From an uncultured Chloroflexia bacterium (GTDB lineage: Bacteria > Chloroflexota > Anaerolineae > JAAYZQ01): a DNA stretch of 64,000 nt. The notes under the pieces are model-generated. The model was not told the DNA's origin, did not search any database, and saw nothing but the letters and a program-made list of their open reading frames with translations. Below, piece by piece: positions 9,519 through 60,166 of the stretch. The stretch lies in assembly GCA_963783445.1 (NCBI GenBank), contig CAWANP010000012.1:466249-530248 (forward strand). The letters run 5' to 3'. The position numbers were made by a program, and so were the translations under genes. Position 1 is the stretch's first letter. Each line of letters opens with the position of its first letter.

Positions 9519-9626
9519 GACGAGTTCCAGCCTTGCTCGGCCTTTGCAGGGCTGGAACCTTCTGGTACTGGCTGGCAGGGGTTTGGACGTAGAGTCCAGG
9601 TCTGTGCCCGCGGTCAGAGTGGTATT

Positions 9627-21332: not shown

Positions 21333-21356
21333 AGATGACGACTCCTTCCAGTCCCC

Positions 21357-38606: not shown

Positions 38607-39632
38607 TCACCTCCCAGCGCTTGCCCGCCAACTGGCATAAAAATCCATCATTCGGTCGGCAAGTTTCCTTGCGTCATGCCGCCAAGGGGCAGAGCTATCA
38701 ATCAGATCGGCTTCAATCACCCGGTAGTCGCCATTGGCTGGATGGTGCAGCTCCACCGGTTGCAGGTGCGGATACTCCGGGCTTGGCATCAAGTTGTTAT
38801 TTGCCATGACGTAGGGAAACAACCCACGCCTGGTGTGGTCCTGCAGGGCGCTTACATGCTGCCCCACGTCAAGCCCATCGGTCTCTCCCGGTTGGGTGGC
38901 GACGTTACACACATAGACCTTTAGCGCCTTTGACGCCGCGACCGCTCGCCGAATATCCTCGACGAGCAGATTGGGCAGGACGCTTGTAAACAAACTCCCC
39001 GGCCCGGCGATGATGAGGTCGGCGTCAAGGATCGCCTTCACCGCTCCGGGATAGGCCCTTACCCGTTCAGGCCGCAGAAAGACGCGCTCGATTGGCTGTC
39101 CGGCCTTGGGGATTGCCGACTCCCCCCGGACCCGGGTCAGCCCCGATCGCGGAACATCAACCTCTCCGCCAGCGGAAGTGGCAGCAGGGCACCGCAGATC
39201 GGCCACCAGCGTCACGTCCTCCAAGGTAGCGGGCAGGATACGCCCTTGCACGGCCAGAACACGCCCCGTTTCCAAAATCGCTTGCTCAAAACTACCCGTT
39301 ACTGCAGAAAGGGCAGTAATGAACAAGTTTCCAAAGCTGTGGCCGTGCAGGCCGTGGCCCTGTCCGAAGCGATATTGGAAGAGTTGGGTGATTAGTGCCT
39401 CGTCGTCAGCCAGAGCGGCGATGCAATTCCGGAAATCGCCTGGGGGCAGTACCCCCAACTCACGGCGCAAACGGCCTGACGATCCTCCGTCATCGGCCAC
39501 GGTGACGATAGCGGTGATGTGAGGGCTGTGCGCTTTTAGGCCTCGCAGGGACGTTGAAAGACCTGTTCCTCCACCAATGGCCACCACCTTTGGGGCCTGA
39601 CCTGTTGGCTTATTCTTCCCAAGTGTGACCAT
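38607..39632 (-). CDS. YvcK/CofD-family gluconeogenesis-factor-like protein (UPF0052)
   Basis: N-terminal [11 protein letters not shown], CofD-like fold motifs. Confidence 0.75.
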
Positions 39633-39852
39633 TCTTCATCCGATCGCTATTATATCCCAATTCCCGGGCTACGTCAATGTTGCGACCAGCTTGGGGGATT
39701 TGTCACAAACGGAGCTGCCTTGTGTGAGACTGGAAAAGTACTCCCCCGCTCCGTACCGCTGTTGGCCCCTTTGCACGAACAGTGATACAATGGGGCCCGC
39801 GGCCGGGAAGCAGGATGATTTTCCTGGTACGCGAACCCTGAGGGAGCTGGCT

Positions 39853-42103
39853 ATGACCGATACGATAGAGATCTTGGCGGGATTGAATCCTGCCCAGCGC
39901 GACGCAGTCCAGGCAGTGGAGGGACCAGTTCTGGTTCTGGCCGGTCCTGGCAGCGGTAAGACCCGGGTACTGACCCACCGCGTGGCTTACCTGGTAACAG
40001 AGTACGGTGTACCCCCTTGGCAGATCATGGCGGTTACTTTTACAAACAAGGCTGCTCGCGAGATGAGAGACCGCCTCTTCCGGTTGCTGGGTGAGGATTC
40101 ACGAAAGTCGACGATTGGAACCTTCCACGCCATCTGCGCTCGCATCCTGCGCCAGGAAGCCGAGGCCATCGGTATCTCATCCCGCTACGTCATCTATGAT
40201 GCTGGCGACCAGGTCAGCCTGGTGCGGAGGGCCATCCGGGATCTGGGTCTCGACGACAAGCTATTCCGCCCCAAGTCTATGCTCCGCATCATCTCCAGTG
40301 CCAAGAACGAACTCATCGCTCCCGCCGAGATGCAGGCCGCCACCTACCGCGAGGAAGTTGCCAAGCGCGTGTACGAGCGCTACCAGGTCCTGCTGGCGGA
40401 GAATGGGGCACTGGACTTTGATGACCTGCTGACAAAGACGGTACAACTGTTCCAGCAAAATGCCGATATTCGAAGCAAATACCAGCACCGGTATCCATTC
40501 ATTCTGGTGGACGAGTGGCAGGATACCAATATGGCCCAGTACGAACTGGTCAAGCTTCTGGCCGGCGAGCGGGCCAACCTCTTTGTCGTGGGCGATGAAG
40601 ATCAGTCGATCTACCGTTTCCGCGGAGCTGACTATCGCAACGTGGCCCGCTTCCGGGAGGACTATCCCCAGTGCCCAAGTAATCCTTCTGGAGCGAAACT
40701 ACCGGTCTACCCAGACCATCCTCGATGTCGCCAATGCCCTCATCGTACGCAATCTGCATCGCCACCCAAAGAGGCTCTACACAGAGCAAGCCGGCGGCCC
40801 GCAACTCTCCATCATCGAGGCCTATGATGAGCAGGAAGAGGGCGACATGGTTGTCAGTGAGATTCTTCGACTGGTGGCGCGGGACCAGGCGCAGTTGGGC
40901 GACTGCGCGGCCATGTACCGCACCAATGCCCAGTCACGGCCCATTGAGGATGCCTTTGTACGCCGAGGGATTCCCTACAAGCTGGTCGGCGCGACACGCT
41001 TCTACCAGCGCCGGGAGATCAAGGACATCATGGCCTATCTGCGCCTTATCCACAATCCCTACGACGGAGTAGGCTTGGCGCGCATCATCAATGTGCCGCC
41101 CCGCGGAATTGGCCAACGCACGATCCAGATGCTCGTCCAGTGGGCAAACGACATGGCCGTGCCGGTCTATGCTGCCTTACAAGTCCTGGCCGAAGCGGAG
41201 GCGGAGGAGAATTCCGCTACAGCGATTCCCTTTGGCGCGCGGGCCAGGAAGGCTCTGTTGAATTTTGTCGAGTTCCTCGAGGAATTGATCCGGTTGCGCA
41301 CCCAGGTAAATCTGCTGGAGCTACTCGATCTGTTGCTGGAGCGGAGTGGCTATGCACGATCCGTCCAGGATGGCAGCGACGAGGGGCAGGCTCGCTGGGA
41401 AAATATCATGGAGTTGCGTACGGTCGCTCGCGACTATGCGGACCTGCCGGTAGAGACCGCGCTCACGACTTTCCTCGAGGAGGTCGCCCTGGTCTCGGAT
41501 GTGGACAACCTGGATGCCGGGGTTGACGCGCCCACGTTGCTGACGATGCATGCCGCCAAGGGACTGGAGTTTCCGGTGGTCTTTATTGTCGGTCTGGAGG
41601 AAGGACTTTTTCCTCACAGCCGGTCGATGGACGATCCGGAACAGATGGAGGAAGAACGACGGCTTGCCTACGTGGGTGTGACTCGGGCCAAGGAACGGCT
41701 CTACCTCCTCCGTACCTTTCGGCGGACGCTGTACGGTGAAAGTGAAATCCGCGAGCCCTCGCGCTTTCTCCGTGACATCCCGGCCAAGCTCATCAAGGGG
41801 CGGGAGAAAGCGCAGACGGCGAAACAGCCAAGCCTCGATATGGGGGCGGGCCGGTTTCTGGGGCGGAAGTCTTTTACGCCCTTTTCATCACGCCGGGAGC
41901 CGAGCCCCACAACCCCGCGTCCGCAGCCAGTGGCCGCCAGCTTTCACACCGGCGACCAGGTCCGGCACGAGGTTTTTGGCCAGGGGGTGGTGATCGAAAG
42001 CAAGGCTGTCGGGGGTGATGAGCAGGTGACGGTTGCCTTTGCTGGGGCCGGGCTCAAACGGCTGATGGCCAGCCTGGCGCCGATGGAAAAGCTGGAGAGC
42101 TAG
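39853..42103 (+). CDS. pcrA: ATP-dependent DNA helicase PcrA/UvrD, one frameshift (~40672, extra T)
   Basis: Walker A GPGSGKT, motifs III/IV; removing one T at cag[t]gcc restores …[18 protein letters not shown]…; C-terminal Tudor-like tail. Confidence 0.85.
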
Positions 42104-42589: not shown

Positions 42590-42912
42590 GATTCCCTCCG
42601 CGCGCTGGCAGCACGACAGGCCCGCCTCCAAGACACGCTTACCACCAATCCCGCTGCAAAGGATTGTACCAGCTAGGTACACAATTGTCAAGCAGCCTCT
42701 AGCCTTGGAGCACGGATGTTTACCCACTGCCTGGCGTACCCTACAGTCGTCTATATCGTTCCTTACGAAAAGGCTTTCACCACCATACGGTTCGTCGGGC
42801 AGGTACAGCTGCTGTTGGCAAAGACCAGCGCTTGCTGAAATGACCCAGATCGGTTACAATCAATCCCAACGCATTGCTGCCTGCCTGTCCCACGGGGAAA
42901 GGAGTTCCGTTG

Positions 42913-44895
42913 ATGCCAAGCACATCAGATGTCGGCCGGACTTATCGCCGCATCGTCAATGCCTGGTGCATGTACGATTGGGCCAACTCTGCCTTTGCTA
43001 CGACGATCATGGCCGCTGTGTTGCCCATCTTCTACAGCCAGGTAGCTGGCGCCACGCTTCCCAGCGAGGCCGTGGCCACGGCCTACTGGAGCGTGGGGCT
43101 GAGCCTATCACTCCTCGTCGTCGCCGTTCTGTCCCCCTTGTTGGGTACCATCTCTGACGTGATGCGCGGCAAGAAACGCTTTCTGGCCATCTTTGCCGGA
43201 TTGGGCATTGTGGGCACTGGTCTGTTGGTCCTGGTCAGTACCGGCGACTGGCTGCTGGCTTCGATCCTCTTTGTCCTGGGCCGCATCGGCTTCACCGGCG
43301 CCAATGTATTCTACGATTCGCTGCTGCCTCACGTGGCCAAGGAGGACGATCGGGACCGGGTCTCTACCCGCGGCTTTGCCCTGGGGTATCTGGGCGGCGG
43401 TCTGCTCCTGGCCATCAACGTGGTGATGATCCAGTTGCTGCCTGGTACGTGGGGGCCTCGCCTCTCATTCCTGAGTGTCGCCATCTGGTGGGCCGTCTTT
43501 TCCATCCCCATCCTGACCCGCGTGCCAGAACCACCCTCCGCCACAGCCAAGCTCGGCCCAGGCGAAAGCGTGGTCGCGGTCAGTCTCAAGCGCCTGTGGG
43601 GTACCCTCAAAGACATCCGGCACTACCGGCAGTTGTTCAAATACCTGATAGCTTTCCTGATCTATAACGATGGCATCGGTACCATCATCGGCGTAGCGGC
43701 CATCTATGGGGCGGAACTTGGCTTTGGCAGTGTGGAACTGATTCTGGCCCTGTTGCTGGTGCAGTTTGTAGGCATCCCCTTCAGCCTGATCTTTGGGCGG
43801 CTTCCCAGCGACGCAGACAAGCGACGGCCGTTATACCTGGCCTTTATCGTTTTCAATTTTGTCGCCCTGCCACTGGTTGGCCTGGTTGGCGCCCGGACTC
43901 TGCCGGGAGAGATTTCAGGCGCGCCGCTGCCACCATACGCGGATACGGCCACGGCTGTTGGTGAAGGTACCTATCTGGCCGGTGATAACGCGTCTGAGCT
44001 TCGAAGGTTCTTGGCGGATGGCGACCATCCCGGCCGATGAGCTGGGTTCCGAAGAGGATGCGACCCATGCCGTGAGTGACGAGGCGGGCGCCCGCTATGA
44101 ACTGGCTTTCAACGGACAGGAAGTCGAGATTACCTACAGCACTGGGCCTGAAGGCGCCATCTGGGCTGTGCAAGTGGACGGCCAGCCGGTCCTGGACGTG
44201 GACACGGGCGACCCGCTGACCCTGGATGGCTACAATCCGACCGTGCGCCACGGGGTACGCCACACTGTCAAGGCCGTGGATCCGGGGAGCACGTTCTGGG
44301 TGTGGTCAACACCGGCGAACACAATCCCGACAGCCAGGGAACCGCCATGGCCGTAGCTCAACTGGAGGTCCAGGCCCCGATTCGCCAGAGCAGCCTTCCG
44401 ATGATCATCGGCCTGATTGCGATTGTGGAGGTGGTCGGTATTCTCTTTGCTCTGCTGCTGGGCCGCCCCCTCTTTTCGCGGCTGGCCAAGACCTTGGACA
44501 CACGCCGCAGCATCATTCTGGCCCTGGTGTTCTATGCCGTGATCGCCATGTGGGGCTTTGTCCTCGACTCGGTGGTCGAGTTCTGGTTCCTGGCCTGGAT
44601 GGTAGCCGTTGTGCAAGGCGGCAGCCAGGCGCTCAGTCGCAGCCTGTATGCCAGCATGTCTCCGGCGGCAAAGAGTGGAGAATTCTTTGGCCTCTATGGT
44701 GTGATGGAGAAATTCTCGGCCATCATTGGCCCCCTCCTCTTTGCTGCCGCTGCTACGGTCTTTCACAGCAGCCGGCCTGCCGTCCTGAGCTTGATCGTAC
44801 TGTTCCTCGTTGGCATCTTTTTGCTAACACGGGTGAACGTTGAGGAGGGACGCCGCGTAGCCAAGGAGGAGGATGCAAGATCTGGCTTGGCTTAG
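42913..44895 (+). CDS. MFS transporter (UMF1/Atg22-like) with ~180-aa soluble insert between TM9 and TM10; two frameshifts (~44035, ~44300)
   Basis: GGAAAGGAG RBS + ATG 42913; 9 TMs then insert (…YELAFNGQEVEITYSTGPEGAIWAVQVDGQPVLDVDTGDPLTLDGYNPTV…) then 5 more TMs across ORFs 42874-44040, 43793-44356, 44302-44895. Confidence 0.7.
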
Positions 44896-46355: not shown

Positions 46356-49300
46356 TTGTGGGACGGTGGGGCAGGAAGCCGGCAGTACCTCCCTGTTCCC
46401 GCAATGAGCTGTGGAGGGAACTCTGAAGCCGGAAGGCTGTCGTTCCTGTTGGTTTTCCTGGCGCTGATGGTTGTGCTGGAGTGCCGGCCACAGCCCAGGA
46501 AGTACCGGCCTGGACCATCTATCTCTTCACGATGGACAGGTCGTGCCCGTGGCAAGGGAAGGTGCGGTCAGCGGGGATGTTCAGGCCGATGCCGATCTGC
46601 TTCTTTTGGCTCTGTTGGCCGGTCCCCTTCCTGATGAGCAATCTGGCGGCCTTGATTCACCATGGCCACCGGGATCCCAATTAGCTGCGGTCAATCTAGC
46701 TGGTGATGAGGTGACCGTTGACCTGTATTTGCCCCCGGGTTTCCTGCGCGGTAAACTCGATCCCGATCCCTGAGCGATGCCATCGTCGAGCTCATTGCTA
46801 AGACGCTCCATCCTCTTGGCCTCGACCGAATCCACGTTCGCGCGCAAAATGAAGCCGGAGCCTTTGCCCCTCTATCTCGTTTTCTTCAGCTCCGCCAGTC
46901 ATTCGTCCCGGCATGCCAGCCAACGCAGATGCGGCTCCGGAGTCGCATGGGGCCCCTGCCTGAACGACCCGGTACGACCCCGGACTATCCGGGCCAGCCT
47001 CCGGTCTCAGGGCAGGGGCAGCCTCGGGGCGCGCTGACCGGCAAGGCGGTCTGGCTCAGCGCCGGTCACGGCTGGTACTGGAGCAGTACCCTGAATCGCT
47101 GGACTACACAGCGGGGCAACAATCACGGGCTCGTCGAGGATTTTTCTAACGCTGAAGCCGTGAACTATTACCTGGCTCGCTATCTCTGGAACGCTGGCGC
47201 TGACGTCTGGCTCGTGCGTGGGCGGGCCATGACCGAGCACGAGATCATTGTGGACAATGATGACGGCGCCCCCTCCTATGCGGAGACAGGTGACTGGCAG
47301 ACCAGTCCCACACCTGGCTACCAGGAAAGTACCTACCGCTGGGCCAGCACTGTTGATACGCCCTCAGCCACGGCAACCTGGACCCCGGATCTCCCCGCCG
47401 CAGGCTGGTACGCTGTCTGGGCTTGGTACCGCCATGGCGCCAACCGTCCGGTGGAGGCCCGCTATGAGATCCATCATGCCGGTGGTACGACGGCGGTCAG
47501 CATTCCCCAAGAAATCCACGGCTTGACCTGGCGTTACCTGGGTGAATACTACTTTCCATCCGGCCGGTCCGGGCATGTCACCCTTCTCAACAGCTCCAGC
47601 GATGCCGGACAGGCCGTGGTTGCTGATGCTATACGTTTTGGCGGAGGCGTGGGCAGTGTGGCGGAGCCGGGTGGAGCCAGTGGCAAACCGCGATTGGGAG
47701 GAAGCGGCCAAGTACTGGGCCCGGTACCAGGGCGCGCCGGCCGAGATCACGGAAGACGATCGTACCTCGCGCCCCCTCTATGCCGAATGGGAAATGGCCA
47801 AGGGTTATCCTGGCGATGCACAGAACAGCGTCTACATCTCCTGGCATACCAATGCCGGCGGTGGTACCGGTACTGAGAGCTATATTCACAACACCGAGCC
47901 AACCGCCGGCAGTGCGGCCCTTCAGGATGGGGTCCACGCTGAGCTGATCCATGACCTCAGGGCTGCCTGGAACCCGAAATGGGTGGATCGCGGCCAGAAG
48001 CGGGCAGACTTCAGTGAGGTACGAGAACTTTCTACCATTCCTGGCCTGTTGCTGGAAGTAGCCTTTCACGATACGACCGACCCCGGCGATGCCGACGATC
48101 TTGCGGAGCCGATCTTTCGCCAGATTGCGGCCCGCGCCGTGTACCAGGGCATTGTCAAGTACTACGCCAGCCGTGAAAGCGGGCCAGTTCGCCTGATGCC
48201 AGAGCCTCCTGCTGGCCTATCCGCCCGGAGTACGGAATCTGGACAGGTGGCCCTGGCCTGGTCTGCGCCGCCCTGCTGCGACGGCGTGGGCGGGGATGCT
48301 GCCACATCCTTCAAGGTCTATCAGAGCACCGATGGCCGGGCCTTTGACAACGGTACCCACGCGGCCAACCCCTCTCTCATCGTGAGCAACGTGCCGCCTG
48401 GTACCCTCCGCTTCTTCCGCGTCACCGCCATCAACGGGGGCGGCGAATCGTTTCCCACGCCGGTCGTCGCCGTGCGTACTCCTGAGACCGGAAAAGGCAC
48501 CTCTTTTCTCATCGTAGACGGCTTTCAACGACTTGATCAGGCCGCCCTGGTCCCGCAATATGAAGCCTCGAACCTGGGTACGGATCGCCGCATGTTCCTG
48601 GAGCGCATGAACCGCTATGACTATGTGGTCGAGCACGGGAAGGCTCTGGCTGCTTGCGGTCTGGCTTTCGATGGCGCGGCCAGCAAGGCGGTTGAGCGTG
48701 GCGATGTTGCCCTGAGCGATTACCCTGCCCTGGACTGGTTCGTCGGGGAGGATTCTGTTGCCGACGCTGTACTTGGTGACAGCGAGCAGAGCCTGTTGGC
48801 CACCTATCTCCACGACGGTGGCAAGCTTCTCATTTCTGGCAGCAATATAGGCTACGACCTGGTGGATCAGGGGCGAGCCCCGGCTTTCTACCGCGATTTC
48901 CTCCGGACGGCGTACCTGGGCGATGACGCTGATACCCATGACTTTGCAGGTGTACCAGGCGGTCCCTTTGAGGGACTGGCCGGCAGCTTTGACGATGGTT
49001 CAGGCGGTACCTACGAGGTAGAGTCCGCCGACCGGCTTGCTCCCACCTCTGGCTCGGCCCAGGTATTGACCTACACCGGTGGTGCCGGCGGTGGCGCCGC
49101 CGTAGCATACCAGGGAGAATACGGCGTCCTTCACTTTGGCTTTCCGCTGGAGACCATTGTCGATCCCCAGGTGCGTACCGCCCTCTTTTGTGCTGCAGCA
49201 GAGGAGCTGTTGGGCGCCGCAATGCCACCGGGGGGAATCTGCTCGCCACGACTCATCAACCCTGGCTTTGAGGGCGGCAGGAACCAGGTATCCTGGACGC

Positions 49301-51165
49301 TTGACTCTACCGGTGGAGGTCCAATTCTTGCCCATCGTGATGATTTGCCGCCAACCGTGGAGCCCCGCAATGGTGATTGGCTGGCCTGGCTGGGCGGGCG
49401 CACGCCCGGGACCCGGGTCACTACAACCCTCACTCAGGTCGTGGCGCTTCCGCCCAGCGAGCCGTCTGCCTCCTTGAGTTTGGCTTGGTTTATCCAACCC
49501 GGTGCGGCTGGACCTGCCATTGACGATACGCTGTCCATTGGTCTTACTGACCTCAACGGCAACCATCTGGCCGAGCTGTTGACCGTCACCGGCCAATCTC
49601 AGCCTGGTACCTGGCAGGTCTCCGAGTTCAATCTGGATGCCTTTGCCGGTCAGCCGGTGAAGCTGGTAATCCGCGCTAATAGCAGCCATACAGCCTTCTT
49701 TGTAGACGATACAAACCTCACCACCTGTGGGCCGCAGGGGCCGGACGAGTACCGTGCCCTGTGGGTGGATGCCTACCACGACGGGGCCAAGACTTTTCAA
49801 CAGATAGACGAGCTGATAGAGACTGCTCAAGCTGGTAATTTTAATGCCCTGTTTGTCCAGGTTCGGCGGCGTGGGGATACCTACTACCCTTCGGGTATCG
49901 ATCCCTGGGCCTCCGATGCACGACCTGCTTTTGACGCCCTGGAATATCTCATCCAGCGCGCCCACGCAGCAGGTATTGAGGTTCACGCCTGGGTGACCGC
50001 TCTGGCCATTTGGGGCGGGGATATTCCGCCTACTGCGCCCGAACATGTCTTCAACCGGCACGGGCCAGGCGCCGAGGGTCGCGACAATTGGCTGATGACC
50101 AGTCACGGTGGCGAGGACCGACCGAGCGATGGGGTCTTTTACCTGGACCCCGGACACCCTGATGCCGTGGACTATACAGTGGCAATCTGTGCCGAACTGG
50201 CAAGTCGCTACGACCTCGACGGTCTGCATCTGGATCGCATTCGCTATCCTTGGCAGAACTGGGGCTACAATCCTACCGCTCTGGCCCGCTTCCAGGCCCA
50301 GGCAGGGCGCGACGACCGGCCCCGGGCGGATGATGCCGATTGGCTGCAATGGCGACGGGATCAGGTCACGGCCCTGGTTCGCAAGGTCTACCTGACCACG
50401 ACGGCTGTCAATCCACGGCTGCGGGTTAGCGCGGCCCTCTCGGCCGCCGGTGGCTCGCCGGGTGAGACTACCCCCTGGTCCACCCGTACCCCGTATACCC
50501 ACCACCTGCAGGACTGGCCGGCCTGGTTGCAGGAGGGCATCATCGATCTGGGCATGCCCATGATCTATCGTGACCAAGAATCCGCTGCCAGCGACTTTGA
50601 TGGATGGATTGACTGGGCAAAGGACCATCAATATGGTCGAGCGCTGGTGCTGGGCTCGGGGCTCTATCTCAATGCCATTGAAGACAGCATGGCCCAATGG
50701 CGTGAGGTTCGCCAGCCCTCCAGGGCCGGAAACCAGGCTCTCGGGATGGCCGGCTACAGCTATGCCACTCCCAGTGACGCTCAAACGTCACGCCGGGCCT
50801 TTGTCAATCTGGCAGTGACTCGAGTATTCACCCAACCTGCCTCTGTACCAGATATCCCATGGAAAGACAACCCCTCGACGGGCCATCTCATGGGCATTCT
50901 TGGGCCCGCCCTGTCCTGCCGGCCTGCCCTGGACGGCCAGATTCTGACGCTCGCGGGACCGCAGGCCCGCACATTGCTGGCCGATGGAAGCGGCTGGTTC
51001 GGTGCTGTCGATCTCCCGCCTGGCCAATACCTGCTCACGACGGAGATTGTGACACCCAGCTGGGTGATAAATGTCCCGGTGACTGTGGCCCCGGGGCCGT
51101 CACGGAAAAACAGATCGTCCTGCCCGACTGCCAGCAGTCCCTGCAAAAGCTCTACCTGCCGTTGA
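46356..51165 (+). CDS. ~1,600-aa secreted multidomain cell-wall hydrolase: TM/signal – GerMN-like – MurNAc-L-Ala amidase (Amidase_3) split by golvesin-like insert – FN3 – GHL10-type TIM barrel; 3-4 frameshifts
   Basis: Pieces in ORFs 46356-46634, 46471-46773, 46777-47037(alt frame), 46929-47876, 47542-51165: SAGHGWYW…NHGLVEDFSNAEAVNYYLARYLWNAGADVWLVR, YRWASTVDTPSATATWTPDLPAAGWYAVWAWYRHGANRPVEARYEIHHAGGTTAV, ISWHTNAGGG…LLEVAFHDT, FN3-like segment, YRALWVDAYHD…FNALFVQVRRRGDTYYPS GHL10 region. Confidence 0.7.
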
Positions 51166-51264
51166 TCCAGAAGCAGTAGGCCGTCGCCTGGCCTGCGGGC
51201 AAAATAACTTGTGACAACGATATTGGTGACCGCATGGTTTTTGATGTTTCGAACCTTGACTTTT

Positions 51265-51293
51265 TGACCCTCCAGCCGGTTTTGGGTATAATG
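51265..51293 (+). promoter_or_regulatory. sigma70 promoter TTGACC-17-TATAAT
   Basis: ttgaccctccagccggttttgggtataat ~55 nt upstream of ATG 51348. Confidence 0.55.
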
Positions 51294-51347
51294 ACAGCAT
51301 AGGTGCAAGCATGTACTGTCGCTTTGCGCGAGCAAGGGAGACGCCAT

Positions 51348-53612
51348 ATGGAACATGATCTGCGCTTGACGGTCTTTTGGATCGTCCATCTGTTTCTGCT
51401 CGGCCTTTTTGCCATCGAACTGGCCTTTGTCCTGTCCGTGTGGCTCAAGGCCAGGGTGCCGGGGCTTCCAGCCGATGCTTCCCGGTGGCGGAAACTGGGC
51501 GCAGCATTGGGCTTTGGCTTCAGGTTGGTGTTCAGCCGCAAGATCTGGGCACTGCTAAAGGCCTTGGTTGTGGATGGCATGGTGCACCGCCGGCTCTATC
51601 AGCTAGACCTGCGGCGATGGGCTGTCCACATTGCGGTTTTTGGCTCCTTTCTGGTGTTGGGTATTCTCTCGACCATCACCGGCGTTGTCGTCGAAATCCT
51701 ACCCTTGCTGGGCATGACCCCCACGGAGGCCGCTTCCGTGCCCATCATCGGTCCTCTGTACCACGCCGACGTGTGGTGGGTTGCTCTGCTGAATGAAGTC
51801 CTGGGACTCGTCGTGCTGGGCGGAATGATCCTGGTGATCTATCGCCGCTATGTCCAGAAGGATCCTCAGCTACGTACCATCCCCGCCGATAGCATCATCA
51901 TCACGCTCCTGGCCCTTGTCGCCTTTAGCGGTTTTCCGTCGGAGACCTTTCGACTGTTGGCCGACTATACGACACCCGCAGGAATCTTTTCTCCCAGTCC
52001 AACCATGCTGCCCCCGGCCAAATATCCGCCTGTTCTCTACGATCTCTGGGGGCCCCAGTGGGGGTTTGCCGGCTATGTCTCAGCCCTTGGCCTCGGAGCA
52101 CTGCGGTTTAGCCCTGAGGTTCTGGGACTTGTTCCGCAACCTTTCGTTCTGGCTGCATTTCGTCATCGTTGCCGCCCTGCTGTTCCTCCTGCCATTCAGC
52201 CGCTTCTTCCACGTGATCATGAGCCCCGTCATCGTCGCCTACAATACGATGGCTGGAGCAGGAGGCGCACGACGAGCACCTGCGTCACCGCCGGAAGATG
52301 CCGCACATCGCCTCTGGGCCCCAGGCGCCAGCAGGCGTAGGGAGGAGCATCAATGTCCAAGAGAGCAATCGGAAAGTAGATCTGGCCAATTTCACACTCC
52401 ATCAGATGATGGAGATGGAAGCCTGTACCCGCTGTGGCGAGTGTATCGAGAGCTGCCCCACCTATGCCGAGGCGCTGAGCGAAGAGATCCACCCCCTGCA
52501 AAAAATCACCCGGACCAAGAGCTTCTGGAAGGCCGACCATCTGGGCTTCCTGGCGCGGCTGTTCGGCATCCGTCCGTCCACGGAGGAGGAAAGGGCAGCC
52601 TACGGCCGCGGGGTCTACCAGTGTACGCTCTGCGCCCGTTGCCACGTCGTCTGTCCGGTGCAGATCGATACCCGCCCGCTCTGGATCTCGATGAGGGAGC
52701 AGTTGGTAGAATGGGGCCTCTACCCGGAGGTCTTTGATACACTGAGGGATCGCGTTACCAGCCAGTACAACATCTCTGGGGAGGACAATGCCAATCGCCT
52801 GGTCTGGACCGAGAACATGGACCAGGTCCCCGAGGGCTTGGAAGGCAAAACAGGCGTGGACACAGTCTATTTCGTAGGCTGCGTCGGCTCCCTGTATCCC
52901 CGCGTGTATAGCGTGCCCCAGAGCTTTGTCCAGATTCTGGAACGCGCCGGCGAGAGCTTTACCACGCTAGGCGGTGAGGAATGGTGTTGCGGCTTCCCAC
53001 TGCAGATCGCCGGGATGGGCAAGTCTGCCCTCGAGTCTGGCCCGCCATAACGTCGAGGCGGTACGAGCCATCGGCGCCCGGCGGCTGGTTACCACCTGTC
53101 CTTCCTGTTACCATACCTGGGCGCACGAGTATCCCCGCATTCTGGGAGAGCCACTGGGAGTCCAAGTGCTCCACGCCACTGAACTGCTCGTCGAGCTGAT
53201 TGCCGAAAAGAGGATCGAACTGCGCAGTTTCCCGCAACCGGTCACCTACCACGACCCCTGTGACCTGGGCCGGACCAGCGGCATCTATGATGAACCGCGC
53301 AAGATCATCCAGGCCATCCCCGGCATCCAGTTCACCGAAATGGCTGACAATCGGGAGATGGCCCTGTGCTGCGGCGGCGGGGGCGACGCCGAAATGGCCG
53401 ATGCCCAGTTGACGGCCGCCGTCGCCAAGCGCCGCATCGAGCAGGCCCAGGAGACAGGCGCCAAGGTGGTGATCTCTGCCTGCCAGCAGTGCAACCGCAC
53501 CCTGGCAGAGGCCGCCCGCAAGAACCGAATCCGCATCCGAGCCATGGATATTACCGAGGTGGTTTGGCAGCGCGATGGAAGCATGAATACCCAACGGGAT
53601 AGATGGAGGTAA
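51348..53612 (+). CDS. fused membrane cytochrome-b (NarI/HdrE-like) – HdrD/GlpC-like Fe-S protein with two CCG domains; two frameshifts (~52150, ~53040)
   Basis: N-terminal 5-TM NarI-like domain with conserved His in TM2/TM5 region; then CTRCGECIESCP and CTLCARCHVVCP 4Fe-4S motifs; CCG motifs EEWCCGFPL and MALCCGGGGD; pieces in ORFs 51303-52340, 51850-52737, 52298-53050, 52974-53612. Confidence 0.75.
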
Positions 53613-53618
53613 GGAACC

Positions 53619-54035
53619 ATGAAGATCGATCAATACGAGTTCCCCGACGATCTGCTTTTCGACCTGGAGCACAATTGGGTTCGTATCGAGGGAGGTACAG
53701 CGACGCTTGGCTTGAGCGATTTTGGCCAGGATCTGGCCGGTGAGATCGTCTATGCCGAGATGCCCCGCGTGGGCCGGGAGATCACGCAAGGCCAGGCATT
53801 CATGTCCCTGGAATCGGGCAAGTGGGTTGGTCGTGTCAAGGCCATCGTCAGTGGCAAGATCCCCGAGGCCAACGAAGAGATCGAGTGGGAAAGTACCGTC
53901 ATCAACGAGGATCCCTACGGGGAAGGCTGGTTTGCCAAGGTAGAGCTGTCTAGCCAGCCGGAGGGTCTCATGAAGCCATCTGACCCTGAATTCGCCGAGT
54001 TGATCGCTGCCGAACGGGAAAAGTACGGCAAGTAG
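53619..54035 (+). CDS. glycine-cleavage H-protein-like lipoyl carrier protein
   Basis: GcvH fold signature: …FDLEHNWVRIEGGTATLGLSDFGQDLAGEIVY… and lipoyl-Lys region SLESGKWVGRVKAIVSGKI; 7 nt after Hdr-like gene. Confidence 0.7.
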   Translation: MKIDQYEFPDDLLFDLEHNWVRIEGGTATLGLSDFGQDLAGEIVYAEMPRVGREITQGQAFMSLESGKWVGRVKAIVSGKIPEANEEIEWESTVINEDPYGEGWFAKVELSSQPEGLMKPSDPEFAELIAAEREKYGK

Positions 54036-54133
54036 TTTTCACCAGCTAGACCGGGACTGCTTCTACTGTACCCAATGGGACTCCCCGCGCCAAGGCGTCA
54101 CTTCGTTGGGGCCAGGCGCGTGCTGCGTTGGTT

Positions 54134-54163
54134 TTGGGGCAGACTGGCGTGTTGTGGTATAAT
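54134..54163 (+). promoter_or_regulatory. promoter with extended -10 TGGTATAAT; ~300-nt structured leader follows
   Basis: tggtataat 54155-63; leader has GGGCGGCC…GGCCGCCC hairpin. Confidence 0.4.
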
Positions 54164-54459
54164 GGCCTGCGTACGCAGTTTGTGAGGTGCTGTCAGGAAA
54201 GTTCTGATTCTCACCTCTCCTGGCAAGCGGCATATCACGCCTATAATTGGCGGCAGGCAGGGCGGCCTGTCCAGAAGGGTATGGGGCCGCCCACCGCGCA
54301 GAACTCTGAGGAAAGGGCCTCGGTCACAAAGTCGATTGGGTCTTGCGAGAGTCAGATTGTCTGTCACCATTCAGCGGCCAACCTCGCAGACCCCTTTTTT
54401 GTTGGCGGAAATGCTAGATGGCCATTCTTTTGCCAATAAGCTGATAGGAGAAGCTCAGA

Positions 54460-54991
54460 TGTGTACGACGGACGACAAGGCAATCGATCTTATCTTGATG
54501 AGTCCGATCTTTGAAAAGTACCGGGCGCAAAAGGGGACTCTGATCCCCATCCTGCAAAGTCGCAGGATATCTATGGCTACTTGCCGCCTGAGGTCTTGCA
54601 GCTCATTGCCGACCAGCTCGGTGTGGCGTTGGGCAAGGTCTATGGCGTGGCGACTTTCTACTCCCAGTTCTACCTGGAACCCAGAGGCAGGCACGTGCTC
54701 AAGCTGTGTGATGGGACTGCCTGTCACGTCAAGGGCACGCCCATGCTGGCTACCGCCATCGAACACGCGTATGGTATCAGCCCGGGGGAGACATCCGAGG
54801 ATGGCGAGCTCACGATGGAGCTCGTTTACTGTGTCGGGTCGTGTGCGCTGGCTCCTGTAACGGTGCTGGATGACCAGGTGATCGGGCGGGTACAGCCGGA
54901 AGCGCTGGTCCGCCGTTTGAGGAAAGAGATCGCCAAGGGACAAGAAAGCATCGGGCGACTGAGAAGGATAGAAAGGAAGCTTGACGAATGA
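54460..54991 (+). CDS. NuoE/HoxE-like 2Fe-2S thioredoxin-fold subunit (FdsG-like); one frameshift ~54570
   Basis: AGGAGAAG RBS + ATG 54460; …LCDGTACHVKG…CVGSCALAPV… NuoE Cys motifs. Confidence 0.75.
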
Positions 54992-56830
54992 AGGTTCCGG
55001 AGACAGCGACCGTGTCAGATGTCGCGGACAGCGCAGCAGATACAACGCCCTGGACGATCTCCGTCTGTATGGGTACAGGTTGTACCTCCTCTGCCAGCAC
55101 AGAACTGCGCGAGGCTTTGCGGGAGGAAGCTGGAAAACATGACCTCGAAGGGCAGGTCGAAGTCCGGCGTACCGGCTGCTTTGGGTTCTGCGAGCAGGGC
55201 CCCATCGTGATTGTCCAGCCCGGGGAGATCTTTTATTGCAGGGTCAAGCCGCGCGATGCCAAGGCAATCATTGAGCAGCATATTCTGGGCCGCCAGTTGG
55301 TGGACCGGCTCCTGTTCCGTGACCCGTCAAGCGGCGAGTCGATAGAGCGCTGGCACGACATTGGCTTCTATGGCAAGCAGCAGCGCATCCTTCTCGGGAA
55401 CTGTGGCGTCATCGATCCCGAAAACGTGAACCACTACCTGGAGCGCGAGGGATACCAGGCGCTCCGCAAGGCATTGACCGAGATGACACCGGAAGAGGTG
55501 ATCCAGGAGGTTCTCGACTCAGGTCTGCGCGGGCGCGGCGGGGCTGGATTTCCCGCTGGACTCAAGTGGCGCTTTGCCCGACAGACTCAGAGTTGGCCCA
55601 AGTATGTCATCTGCAATGCCGATGAAGGCGACCCCGGTGCATTCATGGACCGCTCGGTGCTGGAGGGCGACCCACACCTGGTCATCGAAGGCATGATCAT
55701 TGCCGGATATGCCATCGGCGCTCAGTACGGCTATGTCTACTGCCGCGCCGAGTACCCGCTGGCCATCCGCCGCTTCGAGCGCGCGCTGGTCCAGGCCCGC
55801 GAACTGGGAATGCTGGGCAAGAATATACTGGGATCCGGCTTTGACTTTGACATCATCGTCAAAGAGGGGGCGGGGGCGTTCGTGTGCGGAGAAGAAACGG
55901 CGCTTATGGCTTCGATTCAGGGAGACCGCGGGCAGCCCTGGCCGCGGCCGCCCTATCCTGCCGTCGCTGGCCTGTGGAAACAACCCAGCAATGTCAACAA
56001 TGTCAAGAGTTACGGCTACACACCACACATCATCCGCAAGGGTGCCGAGTGGTTCAAGAGCCTTGGCACCGAGGACAGTCCTGGTACTGCCGTCTTTGCC
56101 CTGACGGGCATGGTGAACTGCACCGGCCTGATCGAGGTCCCCATGGGGATCACGCTGCGCGAGATCATCTACGACGTGGGCGGTGGCATCCCAGAGGGAA
56201 AACGCTTCAAAGGCGTGCAGACCGGCGGCCCTCTGGGTGGTTGTCTGCCCGAAGAGCACCTGGATACGCCAGTGGACTTTGATTCCCTGGTCGCTGCCGG
56301 CTCCGTCATGGGCTCCGGCGGCATGATCGTCGCCGACGAGAGTACCTGTATGGTCGAGTTTGCCAAGTACTTTATGCAATTTGTTTGCGACGAGAGTTGC
56401 GGCAAATGCCCACCCTGCCGTACCGGCAGCATCCGCATGCTGGAGGTTCTGGAGCGCATCACGGCCGGTGAAGGGAAACCCGGGGACCTGGACGAGATCC
56501 GGCGGCTGGCGGAGGGCATCGAGAAGGGCTCTCTGTGCGCGCTGGGCCAATTGGCCCCTGCTCCCGTGATGTCCACCTTGCAGCATTTTGAGGAGGAATA
56601 CCGGCAGCATATCGAAGAAGGACGTTGCCCGGCTGGCAAGTGCAGCGCCTTGATCAGGTTTGAGATTATTGCCGACCTCTGTACCGGCTGTACCTTGTGC
56701 GCACGGAACTGTCCCAGCAACGCTATCAGCGGCGAAAGGAAAGAAGCGCACATTCATCGATCAAGCGCTGTGCGTGCAGTGCGGTATGTGCAAAGAGGTC
56801 TGCAAGTTCGACGCCGTCGTGGTTTACTAA
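54988..56830 (+). CDS. NuoF-like NAD(H)/FMN-binding Fe-S subunit (FdsB-like) with N-terminal 2Fe-2S domain and C-terminal 2x[4Fe-4S] ferredoxin; C-terminal frameshift ~56745
   Basis: GRGGAGFPAGLKW FMN/NADH motif, ESCGKCPPCR, CTGCTLCARNCP; true C-terminus …CVQCGMCKEVCKFDAVVVY* in other frame. Confidence 0.8.
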
Positions 56831-56848
56831 TCGGAGCGGGGTAAGCAA

Positions 56849-59662
56849 ATGAATGTAGAACTGACCATCAACGGAAAAAAGGTTACAGCCCCCGAGGGCA
56901 GCACCATCCTGGAAGCTGCGCGCCTGGCAGGTATCCAGATCCCTACGCTCTGCCACCATCCTGACCTGACCAACGTGGGCGCCTGCCGCCTGTGCGTCGT
57001 CGCGGTGGAGAGGGCGCGGACGCTGCAAACTGCCTGTACGACGCCTATCTCGGCAGGGATGGTCGTGAACACCGAGAGCGAAGAGGTGCGCGCGACCCGC
57101 AAATTCGTACTGGAGATGCTGCTGACCGACCATCCCAATGACTGCATGACCTGCGAGGTGAACGGCGACTGTGAACTGCAGGACCTGGTCTACGACTATG
57201 GCGTCGAGTGGCCCGAACACAGCGGTCAGCGCCACAGCCTACGAAATCGATTCGGACCCGAATCCTTTTGTGTTCGTCGATCGCAACAAGTGCATCGTTT
57301 GCGGCCGCTGTATCCGGGCCTGCAGCGAGATTCAAAACCGCGATGTCTGGAACTTTGCCCAGCGCGGCTTTGAGACCAAGCTCGTCGCCGGCGCCGACCA
57401 GCTCATGCTCGACGCCCGTTGCGAAAGCTGTGGCCAGTGTGTGGCCTATTGCCCCGTCGGCGCCCTGCACGACAAGATGAGCCTGGGCCTGGGGCGGCCC
57501 AACCAGGTCAGCAAAGTGCGGACGACCTGCTCCTATTGCGGCGTGGGCTGCACCTTTGACCTGAACGTGCGCGACGGCAAGGTCGTGCGCGTTACCAGCT
57601 GCTGAGGATGCGCCGGTCAACGGTTTGTCGCTCTGTGTCAAAGGCCGCTACGGCTACGACTACATACACCACCCCGACCGCCTGACCCGGCCTCTGGTGC
57701 GGGCCAAGTGGCTGGCCGGTGTGCAAGAGAGATTGGCCAGCGGTGAGTGGCGAGTGGCGGATTCCCAATCCCCAACTCCCAATCCTGATGATCTTGTCGA
57801 AACCGACTGGGATACCGCGCTGGACCTGGTAGCCAACCGCTTCGCCGAGGTCAAACAGGAACATGGCAGCGATGCTTTTGCCGTGCTGGCTTCGGCCAAG
57901 TGCACCAACGAGGAGAACTATCTCTTTAACAAGTTCACGCGGCAGATCCTGGCCACCAATACCATCGACCACTGTGCTCGCCTCTGACACAGCGCCACCG
58001 TCGCCGGTCTGGTGACAAGCTTTGGCAGCGGCGCGATGACCAACTCCATCCGCGATATCGCCCAGGAGAGCGAGTGCTTCTTTATCATCGGCAGCAATAC
58101 CACCGAGCAACACCCGGTCATCGGAACCAAGATCCGGCAGGCGGTGCGGTACCGTGGGGCCAAGCTCATCGTGGCCGATCCCCGTCGCATTGATATCGCC
58201 GACTATGCCGACCTGTTCTTGCAGCACAAACCGGGCACCGACATTGCCCTGCTCAACGGCCTGATGCACGTCATCCTCCGTGAAGGTTGGCAGGATGAGG
58301 CATTTATCGCCGAGCGAACCGAGAACTTTGAAGCATTCAGAGCCACCGTTGAGGAATACACTCCCGAGGTGGCCAGCCAGATCTGTGGCGTGCCGGCCAA
58401 AGAGATCGAAAAGGCGGCCAGGATGCTGGCCGAAAACCGGCCCGGTTCCCTATTCTACGCGATGGGTATCACCCAGCACATGGATCGGCGTGGCCAACGT
58501 AATGAGCTGCGCCAACCTGCAGATGCTGCTGGGCAACATGGGGGTGCCAGGGGGAGGCGTGAATCCTCTGCGCGGCCAAAACAACGTCCAGGGCGCCTGC
58601 GACATGGGTGGTCTGCCCAACGTTTACCCCGGCTACCAACCGGTGACCTCCCCGCCTGTCCAGAGAAAATTTGAGAAAGCCTGGGGTGTGCCCTTGTCGA
58701 ACCGGGTCGGGCTGACCGTCACCGAGATGCTTCACGCTGCCGAGGAAGGAGCCGTACGCTGCCTGTACGTCATCGGCGAGAACCCGATGACCAGCGATCC
58801 AGACCTGAATCACGTGCGCCATGCCCTCCAAGAGACCGAGTTTCTGGTGTTGCAGGACATCTTTTTGACCGAAACGGCCCCCTTTGCCGACGTGATTTTC
58901 CCAGCAGCCAGTTTTGCCGAAAAGAACGGTACCTTTACCAACACCGAGCGGCGGGTGCAGTTGGTACGCCGGGCCATCGATCCGCCCGGCGAGGCCCGCT
59001 CGGATTCCTGGATCATCACCGAGCTGGCCCGGCGCCTGCTTGAACTCGGGGCGGCATTGCCTGATCCGGACGCGCCCCACGCTGGTTGGGACTATGCCTC
59101 CACCTCTGACGTGCTGGCCGAGATCAACGCCCTGTCGCCCATCTATGCCGGTATCACCCCCGAGCGGCTGGCCATGGGCGAACAGCTCCAATGGCCTGTG
59201 CCCACTGCCGAGCACCCCGGCACGCCCATTCTGCATGTGGGCAGATTCAGCCGCGGGGTGGGCCGTTTTGCCGCGGTGGATTACGCCGAGGCAGACGAGC
59301 TGCCCGACGACGACTACCCGTTGATGTTGACCACCGGACGCGTGCTCTATCACTGGCACGGCGGCGAGATGACACGCCGCGCCCGTGGTCTGGCGGAGGT
59401 TTATCCCGAGGCGCTGATCGAAATCCATCCCCATGATGCCCACAAAGTGGGGATCGTGGATGGCAATATGATGAAGGTCGCTTCGCGCCGGGGTGAGATC
59501 GTGGCCAAAGCCGAGGTGACCGACCGGGTGGAGCCGGGATTGATCTTCTCCACCTTTCACTTTCCCGAGTCGGCGGCCAACTTCCTGACCAACCCGGCCC
59601 TGGACCCGGTGGCCAAGATCCCCGAATTCAAGGTCTGTGCGGTCAAGGTGGAAGCCGTATAG
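56849..59662 (+). CDS. formate dehydrogenase catalytic (alpha) subunit, NuoG-like N-terminus + Mo-bisPGD domain, selenocysteine (TGA ~57985); 3 frameshifts
   Basis: 2Fe-2S/4Fe-4S N-terminal Cys clusters; [12 protein letters not shown] Mo-domain 4Fe-4S; active-site [18 protein letters not shown] (Sec-His pair of FdhF-type enzymes); pieces in ORFs 56849-57373, 57171-57605, 57625-57987, 58012-58674, 58280-59662. Confidence 0.8.
57988..58045 (+). promoter_or_regulatory. SECIS-like stem-loop downstream of the Sec UGA
   Basis: GCGCC…GUCGCC-GGUCU-GGUGAC…GGCGC; apical GGUCUG matches E. coli fdhF SECIS loop. Confidence 0.5.
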
Positions 59663-59674
59663 AGGAGGCGTCGA

Positions 59675-60166
59675 ATGGACATTCGCAAGATCTACGAGTA
59701 TGCGTTGCAGCGCGAGCATGAGGGCAAGCGTTTCTTTGCCGAAAACGCCGAGCGATTGAGCCACGCCGCGGCAGCGGGTGCCTTCAGGCAGCTAGCGGCC
59801 GAGGAGCAAACGCATATCAACTTTATCCAGGCCCAACTCGATGCCATGGACATGGGCGAACAACCCAGTATCTCCATGGGCATCGAGCTGGAGCAGGATG
59901 GCTTCTTTTCTCAACGGGCCGAGTCCGAGATGCTCGACCAGACCGTAGTGGAGGCCATGGTACCCGACTTGCCTGTGCTGCGCATGGCCTACTTGATCGA
60001 GCGCGATTTCGCCGAGTTCTACGAAATGGCCGCTGAAAAGTCCGAAGGTGAGGCGAAAGAGGTCCTGGCAATGTTGGCCACGTGGGAGCGCGGCCACGAA
60101 AGGCTGTTCAAGGGCCTTCATGACCAGGCATTTGAGGAATACGCCCAAATGCCTTGGGGGGGCTGA
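59675..60166 (+). CDS. ferritin-like/rubrerythrin-family diiron protein (no rubredoxin domain)
   Basis: paired E…ExxH-like helices (…LAAEEQTHINFI…, …LATWERGHERLF…); GGAGG RBS. Confidence 0.55.
   Translation: MDIRKIYEYALQREHEGKRFFAENAERLSHAAAAGAFRQLAAEEQTHINFIQAQLDAMDMGEQPSISMGIELEQDGFFSQRAESEMLDQTVVEAMVPDLPVLRMAYLIERDFAEFYEMAAEKSEGEAKEVLAMLATWERGHERLFKGLHDQAFEEYAQMPWGG

Follow-up and report, generated by a model that had tools for sequence, protein, structure and literature searches.

A split HdrDE-type membrane oxidoreductase beside a GcvH-like lipoyl carrier in an Anaerolineae genome: a candidate lipoyl-protein:quinone oxidoreductase

On what thiol or disulfide does a bacterial membrane enzyme of the HdrDE type act when its gene neighbor encodes a protein resembling GcvH, the H-protein of glycine cleavage? 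HdrB/HdrD-like proteins with CCG motifs are abundant in bacteria, yet the thiols or disulfides on which they act are mostly obscure, except in methanogens (CoM-S-S-CoB) and sulfate reducers (DsrC). The locus that raises the question lies in a stretch of 64,000 nucleotides (nt), here called the window, from an uncultured Chloroflexia bacterium (GTDB lineage Bacteria; Chloroflexota; Anaerolineae; JAAYZQ01; GenBank assembly GCA_963783445.1, contig CAWANP010000012.1, positions 466,249 to 530,248 of the forward strand). An original prediction, made from the sequence alone, described a single fused protein of about 750 amino acids (aa) that joins a NarI/HdrE-type dihaem anchor to an HdrD-type catalytic domain, followed after 7 nt by a GcvH-like lipoyl carrier. 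We find two genes in place of the fusion, and read the locus, with a probability of roughly one half, as encoding a two-subunit membrane thiol/disulfide:quinone oxidoreductase of the HdrDE type (DsrMK-like) and, as its probable substrate, a dedicated lipoyl carrier that resembles GcvH.

No open reading frame (ORF) for a fused protein exists in 51348-53612. The domains are spread over three reading frames, and the longest forward ORFs of the raw sequence run 51303..52340 (frame 0), 51850..52737 (frame 1), 52298..53050 (frame 2) and 52974..53612 (frame 0). Intact homologues align to the window by tblastn as four collinear high-scoring segment pairs in three frames, and a hidden Markov model of codon usage, trained on the window, switches frame at ~52110, 52252 and 53036. 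Relative to close relatives the window has six insertions of 1-2 bases each (~52122, 52254, 52334, 52365-66 (2 nt), 53035-37 and 53568-69), and these coincide with the points where the homologue alignments change frame. Three single-base insertions fall in the hdrE-like gene, shifting 52123-52254 to frame 1 and 52255-52334 to frame 2; the hdrD-like gene has the two-base insertion and the last two single-base ones. At the junction of the two genes the +1 at 52334 and the +2 at 52365-66 make a net +3, by which the raw sequence bypasses the stop codon. The fusion was thus apparent only because domains had been stitched across frameshifts due to assembly indels. The 7-nt spacing is likewise an artefact, since the last insertion (~53568-69) shifts the frame past the true hdrD stop, which lies 32 nt before the gcvH-like ATG; the ribosome-binding site of the gcvH-like gene sits within the frameshifted C-terminal hdrD tail of the raw sequence.

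Relatives read these positions differently. Locus L084 (Logan assembly, run ERR11523668) is 98.5% identical to the window over 2025 nt, lacks its extra bases at 53037, 53569, 54942 and 54985, and has a base missing from the window at 54557, disagreeing with it at all five indels in the region covered. The syntenic L083 (91% identical) lacks the extra bases at 52122, 52254, 52334, 52365-66, 53035 and 53568, and has three insertions of its own, at sites where the window reads cleanly. With indel columns removed, the window and L083 both yield three ORFs (329, 409 and 138 codons) that share their stop codons and have aa identities of 94.5%, 91.2% and 94.2%, respectively. Their nucleotide differences at first/second/third codon positions number 17/7/39, 16/24/71 and 7/5/36, a third-position excess that indicates purifying selection. 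A JGI contig has the layout NarI-like gene end, 12 nt, HdrD-like gene (409 aa), 32 nt, GcvH-like gene (138 aa) and NuoE-like gene (167 aa), so that its 12-nt gap matches that of the window, while the 32-nt gap is common to the corrected window, the JGI contig and L084; in L085 and L086 the three proteins have 328, 421 and 138 aa. The junction of stop codon, Shine-Dalgarno sequence and ATG occurs also in L006, L012, L083 and L085, and the hdrE-like gene stands intact and separate (322-329 aa) in L083, L085, L001 and L003. All relatives at 76-82% identity or closer have two genes; truly fused NarI-HdrD proteins (650-739 aa) belong only to more distant lineages.

The hdr locus very probably consists, then, of two separate functional genes whose indels are assembly errors. 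If instead the raw sequence were right, these would be fresh pseudogenes, or the junction indels a genuine recent fusion. Frameshifts do cluster, with about seven in 51.3-59.7 kb against none in 17.7-34 kb; the two indels at the junction together pass the stop codon in frame; and fused homologues are known in other lineages. We consider this highly improbable: L084 has none of the window indels that it covers, the genes carry the purifying-selection signal, L083 has its own, different insertions, the near-consensus promoter and both ribosome-binding sites are intact, and the same kind of break affects essential genes, such as those of a class I aminoacyl-tRNA synthetase and of UvrD/PcrA. Even with the junction indels accepted, four more frameshifts are left. 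A fusion with three frame corrections, the first gene model, was rejected on the junction seen in L083, L084, L085 and the JGI contig and on the two further junction indels; pseudogene decay was rejected on the third-position bias, the near-identical intact relative and the essential genes broken likewise. Homopolymer error as the sole cause is unsupported, as several inserted bases lie outside homopolymer runs.

The window as a whole is from an indel-prone assembly with clustered, insertion-biased errors. Frameshifts elsewhere split the genes for class I aminoacyl-tRNA synthetase (pieces 6437-6970, 7390-8436 and 8748-9449), UvrD/PcrA, a SulP-STAS transporter, an ATG22/MFS transporter, NuoE, FdhA (three shifts) and a giant Golvesin/fn3/GHL10 protein; the regions with split genes are 682-2665, 6271-9516, 39625-42103, 42874-44895, 46929-51165, 54336-54991 and 56849-59662. 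The shifts are mostly +1, fitting single-base insertions, and 17.7-34 kb has intact ORFs only. Where the inserted base could be located, in the hdr and NuoE region, it is often outside a homopolymer. Single-base insertions in an error-prone assembly can thus mimic a gene fusion, and such architectures need a check against relatives. The corrected features are collected in Table 1.

Table 1. Features of the hdrE-hdrD-gcvH-like locus and of the neighboring formate dehydrogenase operon, in window coordinates.
Feature	Position	Strand	Remarks
Sigma-70-like promoter, TTGACC-17-TATAAT	51264..51292	+	11/12 matches; 55 nt 5′ of hdrE-like start; consensus match only
hdrE-like gene, NarI-type dihaem cytochrome b	51348..52340	+	329 aa after correction; TAG 52338-40
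Haem-ligand His codon, MVHRRLY	51579-51599	+	in hdrE-like gene
Haem-ligand His codon, WAVHIAVF	51618-51641	+	in hdrE-like gene
Haem-ligand His codon, FWLHFV	52147-52164	+	in hdrE-like gene
Haem-ligand His codon, RFFHVIM	52201-52221	+	in hdrE-like gene
Intergenic spacer	52341..52352	+	12 nt; ribosome-binding site GGAGGAG; "linker" of the earlier reading
hdrD-like gene, iron-sulfur catalytic subunit	52353..53586	+	409 aa after correction; ATG 52353, TGA 53584-86
Cubane-cluster motifs CX2CX2CX3CP	52424-52459; 52622-52657	+	in hdrD-like gene
Five-Cys CCG motif 1	52868-53114	+	YFVGC 52868-88; EEWCCGFPL 52976-53002; TTCPSCYH 53091-53114
Five-Cys CCG motif 2	53247-53495	+	YHDPCD 53247-73; ALCCGGGGD 53361-87; SACQQC 53475-95
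Ribosome-binding site GGAGG	53605..53609	+	9 nt before gcvH-like ATG
gcvH-like gene, lipoyl carrier	53619..54035	+	138 aa; intact; no cysteine
K68 codon	53820-53822	+	inside family signature LESGKWVGR 53808-53834
Formate dehydrogenase operon	54220..60166	+	separately promoted; indel-riddled
Promoter-like site	54220-54247	+	formate dehydrogenase operon
NuoE-like gene	to 54991	+	formate dehydrogenase operon
NuoF-like gene	54988-56844	+	formate dehydrogenase operon
FdhA gene	56849-59662	+	formate dehydrogenase operon
Rubrerythrin gene	59675-60166	+	formate dehydrogenase operon

The cofactor sites of the original prediction survive the change of gene model: a NarI/HdrE-type anchor, two cubane motifs and two CCG motifs are all present. 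The membrane subunit has a weak Pfam match to Nitrate_red_gam, and the raw pieces also carry a Fer4_8 dicluster domain and two CCG domains, one partial and one full. A 38-sequence alignment has four conserved histidines, H80 (32/38), H94 (38/38), H270 (33/38) and H288 (37/38), spaced as expected for two bis-His haems with ligands in helices 2 and 5. The cubane motifs of the hdrD-like protein read CTRCGECIESCP and CTLCARCHVVCP, its CCG motifs are complete, of the form C-Xn-CC-Xn-C-X2-C, and all 18 cysteines of the ferredoxin and CCG motifs are invariant among 14 homologues. Two CCG motifs are typical of HdrD and HdrB, while DsrK, TmcB and HmcF have one (PMC10861901). The best match among solved structures is EtfD of M. 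smegmatis (9OJN, E=1.6e-40), and in that alignment the window reads WCCG against TCTG in EtfD and CPSC against CPHC. The EtfD substitutions, C-T for CC and CPHC for CPSC, are reported as making its CCG clusters non-catalytic (PMC13083937).

For the hdrD-like protein no NCBIfam model among TfrB, LdhH, TmcB, GlpC, DsrK, HmcF, QmoC, GlcF and HdrB reaches its cut-off; DsrK scores 99 bits against 400, the CoB-CoM HdrB model 24 against 345, and the GlpC-type models 106.9 against 278 and 71.7 against 279.9. An ordinary GlpC-type anchor, the alternative named in the original prediction, does not fit: the GlpC, DsrK, TmcB, HmcF and LdhH models all fail, and the scanned ORFs of the window include no GlpA/B-type genes. 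The best NCBIfam match is the thiol:fumarate reductase TfrB. TfrB runs in the thiol-oxidising direction, so CCG enzymes can do so.

The third gene, intact in the raw sequence, does encode a GcvH-like protein, as had been proposed (PF01597, GCV_H, E=2e-31). Its Lys68 aligns with the lipoyl-lysine of 13 solved H-proteins (phmmer, E=1e-24 to solved H-proteins), in the context SLESGKW against SIESVKA and EVESTKS in solved H-proteins, and HNW (within 53667-53681) stands in place of the canonical HEW. The lipoylatable lysine on which the idea of a carrier depends is therefore present, and it is invariant in all 38 members of the HdrD-associated family, which come from two phyla. E65, S66, G67, W69 and G71 are also invariant in these members and R72 is found in 34, so that the carrier, judged by sequence, forms its own clade with the signature ESGKWxGR.

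The residues Glu12/Glu14, Ser67, Asp68 and Tyr70 of the E. coli H-protein hold its aminomethyl-lipoyl arm in place and guide it (PMC7733448). Our alignment, with a row for E. coli and with T. maritima and M. tuberculosis rows taken from structure matches, has at the Glu14 position Asn in the window carrier and non-acidic residues family-wide; Ser67 is replaced by Gly (38/38) and Asp68 by Arg (34/38), and the Tyr70 position is variable. The replacement of most of these arm-guiding residues points to a lipoyl carrier that would no longer handle the aminomethyl intermediate. The curated GcvH equivalog model TIGR00527 failed (96.9 bits against 115.85), while the GcvH subfamily model NF002270 was marginally passed (117.4 against 117). 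LbpA proteins are told from GcvH by two conserved cysteines, one N-terminal and one C-terminal (PMC6067878); cysteine is absent from the window carrier and from 21 of 37 family members.

A genome scan, with one genome per species, gave at least 78 loci, of which the closest are 76-77% identical among the matches listed. The 78 listed loci are mostly from Anaerolineae and other Chloroflexota, with some from Syntrophaceae and other Thermodesulfobacteriota and some from Actinomycetota; 34 are well flanked, having at least 4 kb on either side. Some crude ORF calls in GC-rich loci are antisense artefacts (clusters C8, C12 and C24) and were left out. A NarI-like gene lies within 500 nt of the HdrD-like gene at 63 of the 78 loci (29 of the 34 well-flanked), a GcvH-like gene is in the locus at 52 (29 well-flanked) and within 1.5 kb at 43 (23), and a ligase of the LplA-LplB type is in the locus at 27 (18). 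Of well-flanked loci with an adjacent NarI-like gene, 27/29 have the carrier and 16/29 the ligase, while every other gene family is found at no more than 11 of 82 loci. The association is far above chance because few GcvH-family genes are expected per genome. A reverse search from the GcvH side found HdrD adjoining in 5/5 contigs, from four GcvH-like matches. No identical entry turned up for the window carrier itself.

The pairing is thus strongly conserved in relatives of two phyla, and in several gene orders: close relatives have NarI-HdrD-GcvH-LplA, other Chloroflexota GcvH-NarI-HdrD-LplA, and Thermodesulfobacteriota GcvH-HdrD-NarI-LplA. The original prediction had also looked to a dedicated lipoate ligase nearby; one adjoins the trio at 21/46 trio loci of relatives, but the window has none. 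Low-identity Actinomycetota loci are without the carrier. Some loci of Actinomycetota or unclassified origin (L069, L071-L073 and L076-L078) have NarI-HdrD at 42-44% identity beside recF, a small DUF-like gene and gyrB; these pairs, without a GcvH-like gene, are a different subfamily with a conserved position near the replication origin. The fused NarI-HdrD loci are L027, L029, L030, L032, L035, L039, L042, L048 and L002; several have no GcvH-like gene in the DNA covered, and L030 and L032 retain the ligase. A gene for a UbiA-family prenyltransferase, which could relate to haem O/A or menaquinone biosynthesis, lies between the HdrD-like and ligase genes in L037, L040, L041, L062 and L068 and upstream of NarI-HdrD in L011.

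Taken as a lipoyl-protein:quinone oxidoreductase, the trio might work as follows. The ligase would lipoylate K68 of the carrier, and the lipoyl arm would alternate between its disulfide and dithiol forms at the pair of noncubane [4Fe-4S] clusters in HdrD. Electrons would travel to or from menaquinone by way of the cubane clusters and the haems, two of each. Lipoamide has a potential near -290 mV (PMC6067878) and menadiol near -70 mV (PMC10861901), so the downhill direction would be dihydrolipoyl oxidation with quinone reduction. The carrier in turn may be reduced by the soluble CCG or flavin enzymes found beside the trio in relatives, namely HdrCBA-MvhD, GlcD/GlcF-like dehydrogenases and formate dehydrogenase modules. 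In this way the lipoyl-protein would play in bacteria the part of CoM-S-S-CoB or DsrC, linking cytoplasmic redox enzymes to the quinone pool as a dithiol/disulfide shuttle.

Several points weigh against this reading. We infer every step of the mechanism from sequence, the direction of electron flow included. EtfD and EMO, which have the same architecture and have been solved or characterised, use their CCG clusters for electron entry from a flavoprotein and not for disulfide chemistry. The loci are mostly metagenome-assembled genomes (MAGs) of related lineages, so the counts are phylogenetically non-independent. The fused-type loci L027, L029 and L035 have no GcvH-like gene within the DNA covered, and neither in the window nor in L083 is there a ligase or a second CCG enzyme near the trio; tblastn of the window for LplA, GlcD, HdrA/B/C, MvhD, UbiA and NrfD matched only hdrD itself and FdhA.

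Among known systems, HdrDE of methanogens has the same two subunits from adjacent genes as the corrected locus, with a NarI-type dihaem cytochrome b that has four histidines and an HdrD with two cubane and two five-cysteine CCG motifs. HdrDE uses CoM-S-S-CoB and methanophenazine, whereas the locus is bacterial (Anaerolineae-like), with relatives in Chloroflexota and Thermodesulfobacteriota MAGs, and has no CoM/CoB context; a lipoyl-protein is the candidate substrate and menaquinone the expected quinone. The best functional analogy is with DsrMK(JOP)-DsrC, a menaquinol:DsrC-trisulfide oxidoreductase in which a cytochrome b and a CCG subunit act on a small sulfur-bearing carrier protein (PMC10861901). 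DsrK has only one CCG motif, the second being degenerate, whereas the hdrD-like protein has two complete ones, and the redox sulfurs of DsrC are on cysteines where those of the carrier would be on a lipoyl cofactor. No dsrC or dsrAB domains were seen among the window ORFs scanned.

The sHdr-LbpA systems resemble the locus and its relatives in a GcvH-family lipoate-binding protein with a strictly conserved lipoyl-lysine and a dedicated Lpl(AB)-type ligase, tied genetically to Hdr-like CCG enzymes; type II sHdr, frequent in Chloroflexota, also includes a membrane protein of the NarI+HdrD type (PMC11094781). sHdr differs in its syntenic set shdrC1B1AH(C2B2 or B3, with etfAB) (PMC11094781), whereas HdrA/B/C and MvhD queries match only hdrD in the window, and the membrane enzyme of the locus, unlike that of sHdr, keeps catalytic-type CCG motifs and has its carrier directly adjacent. 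EtfD of mycobacteria (PDB 9OJN) and EMO of Syntrophus, both ETF:(methyl)menaquinone oxidoreductases, share the five-helix cytochrome b, the two [4Fe-4S] motifs and the two CCG domains with the locus, but each is one fused polypeptide with ETF as partner, where the locus has two genes; no etfAB turned up in the scan of window ORFs or among the genes listed for close relatives. GcvH has the same fold and lipoyl-lysine hairpin as the carrier, which differs by its ESGKWxGR clade, its replaced cavity residues, the missed equivalog cut-off and the lack of gcvT/gcvP neighbors in the neighbor clusters.

Roughly half of the 46 trio loci have a second CCG protein or HdrBC beside the trio, and a second CCG enzyme next to the carrier and the membrane CCG enzyme is what a dithiol/disulfide shuttle predicts. 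The partners vary. One set has a GntR/FCD regulator, a GlcD-like FAD dehydrogenase and a soluble GlcF/HdrD-like CCG protein beside the trio, and another an 858-aa fusion of the GlcD-like and GlcF/HdrD-like proteins. Others have HdrC-HdrB with a 1483-aa HdrA/HdrL-like protein and MvhD, the series HdrB-HdrC-HdrC-HdrB-HdrA-MvhD, or a molybdopterin oxidoreductase 56-59% identical to the window FdhA, with or without NrfD, or NuoEF-like genes. In the Thermodesulfobacteriota loci L049, L050, L053, L055 (about 100-13600), L054, L056 and L045, the trio is preceded either by the regulator, GlcD-like and GlcF/HdrD-like genes or, on the opposite strand, by the 858-aa fusion. The GlcD-type neighbors suggest a 2-hydroxyacid input, of the lactate or glycolate type, to the same carrier.

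Directly downstream in the window is the NAD-linked formate dehydrogenase operon, whose description as selenocysteine-containing was correct as far as the sequence tells: an in-frame TGA at 57985-57987 falls in HCARL-U-HSATV of a NuoG-type FdhA, and the enzyme is predicted to be a selenoprotein. Adjacency to formate dehydrogenase recurs in some relatives; in the window the operon has its own promoter-like site. The operon is best taken as genomic context and not as an established part of the trio module. The original prediction had seen in it a hint of C1 or glycine-linked electron flow, and of this the recurring adjacency remains, while the link to glycine is weakened by the replaced cavity residues, by the lack of T- and P-protein genes in the neighbor clusters and by the lack of a glycine riboswitch. 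In L085 (10871-18307; JGI 3300069047), whose carrier is 90% identical to that of the window, the carrier gene is followed by HdrC-HdrB-HdrA-MvhD-FeS-FdhA(Sec)-rubrerythrin; HdrA is called there in two pieces, possibly split at a selenocysteine, and FdhA is split at its Sec. The window has NuoE-NuoF-FdhA(Sec)-rubrerythrin in this place, so the electron-transfer module ahead of the same formate dehydrogenase appears to have been swapped between the two.

How else might the trio be explained? Like EtfD, EMO or GlcF, the HdrED pair may take electrons directly from a flavoprotein or Fe-S partner and serve as their quinone-linked exit (or entry), with the GcvH-like protein co-located for some other reason and not as its substrate. 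EtfD is the closest solved structure, both EtfD and EMO accept electrons from ETF at their CCG clusters, and GlcD-like FAD dehydrogenases with GntR/FCD regulators stand beside the trio in Thermodesulfobacteriota. Yet the hdrD-like protein keeps CC and CPSC, without the two substitutions that make EtfD non-catalytic, the ORF scan and tblastn found no ETF, GlcD or other flavoprotein partner in the window, and the linkage of carrier and ligase to well-flanked NarI-adjacent loci (27/29 and 16/29) would be left unexplained; we regard this alternative as unlikely. Still less probable is a working H-protein for which HdrED replaces the L-protein (dihydrolipoamide dehydrogenase), so that glycine cleavage or the reductive glycine pathway would be coupled to quinone and not to NAD. 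The strong GCV_H match, the subfamily cut-off that is just passed and the formate dehydrogenase genes that recur nearby would fit such a role, which is opposed by the failed equivalog cut-off and by the family-wide replacement of the residues at the E. coli Glu14, Ser67, Asp68 and Tyr70 positions. As the original prediction had it, GcvT and GcvP are missing from the window ORFs scanned, and no family of gcvT/gcvP size recurs in the neighbor clusters of 82 neighborhoods, in both cases with no direct T- or P-protein query. No glycine riboswitch was found: Rfam gave no riboswitch or other RNA, either in the whole window at gathering thresholds or permissively in 51000-54450.

Two further alternatives seem to us very unlikely. 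One is a sulfur-oxidising system of the sHdr-LbpA type, akin to the type II clusters that also encode EMO. Among the known partners of Hdr-like complexes are LbpA proteins and Lpl(AB) ligases (PMC6067878), and in Chloroflexota type II shdr clusters that include etfAB-emo are common (PMC11094781); against these stand a carrier without the two conserved cysteines of LbpA, the absence from the window of any shdrA/B/C, etfAB or sulfur-transferase genes that we could find, and Hdr genes in relatives that accompany MvhD, NuoEF and formate dehydrogenase and not TusA or DsrE. The other is an antioxidant role, in which HdrED would keep the lipoyl protein reduced to feed peroxidases. A lipoyl protein feeds a peroxidase in the mycobacterial lipoyl-protein/AhpD/AhpC system. 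Staphylococci offer a precedent too, as GcvH-L of S. aureus is reported to promote oxidative-stress resistance (PMC12440151). Rubrerythrin follows the formate dehydrogenase operon in the window and L085, and AhpC-like genes follow the fused homologue in L002, but such adjacency is confined to near relatives or to one locus, and rubrerythrin/AhpC linkage as a general feature was rejected on that ground. Reduction of lipoyl by menaquinol would moreover be uphill by ~220 mV.

The HdrDE/DsrMK/EtfD/EMO architecture is already known, as are GcvH-like lipoate-binding proteins that serve Hdr-like complexes (sHdr-LbpA). Apparently undescribed is one combination found in anaerobic Chloroflexota and Thermodesulfobacteriota, in which a split HdrED-type enzyme whose CCG motifs are of the catalytic type goes with a lipoate ligase and with an ESGKWxGR carrier that has no cysteine; no account of a NarI-HdrD-GcvH-like(-LplA) module was found in the literature searched, which is weak evidence as subscription journals were mostly outside the search. 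The conserved trio with its ligase names a concrete, testable substrate for a CCG enzyme. If the assignment to a lipoyl-protein:quinone oxidoreductase is true, protein-bound lipoate would shuttle electrons to the quinone pool, a role additional to those in acyl and aminomethyl transfer and in sHdr sulfur oxidation. That role would go some way to account for how Anaerolineae and syntrophic Thermodesulfobacteriota, abundant organisms of digesters, sediments and soils, conserve energy. A broader and more tentative reading is that an Hdr system widespread in bacteria may have as its physiological "heterodisulfide" the ESGKWxGR lipoyl-protein, dedicated to it and apart from glycine cleavage; enzymes of the HdrABC-MvhD, formate dehydrogenase or GlcDF types (possibly bifurcating) would reduce this protein, and membrane HdrED would re-oxidise it with menaquinone. 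Such an energy-conserving loop in anaerobic Chloroflexota and Thermodesulfobacteriota would be likened to the cycling of CoM-S-S-CoB in methanogens and of DsrC in sulfate reducers.

Two other features of the window may be noted. The giant protein directly upstream of the hdr genes (46929-51165, + strand) is of a secreted type, with a Golvesin C-terminal domain, fn3 and a GHL10 glycosyl-hydrolase-like domain; it is probably encoded by a single gene that an indel near 47.6 kb interrupts, and L083 has this gene in synteny. On the - strand at 19584-23141, two tandem PPK2 polyphosphate kinase genes lie beside the gene of a CYTH-CHAD protein, forming a compact polyphosphate cluster.

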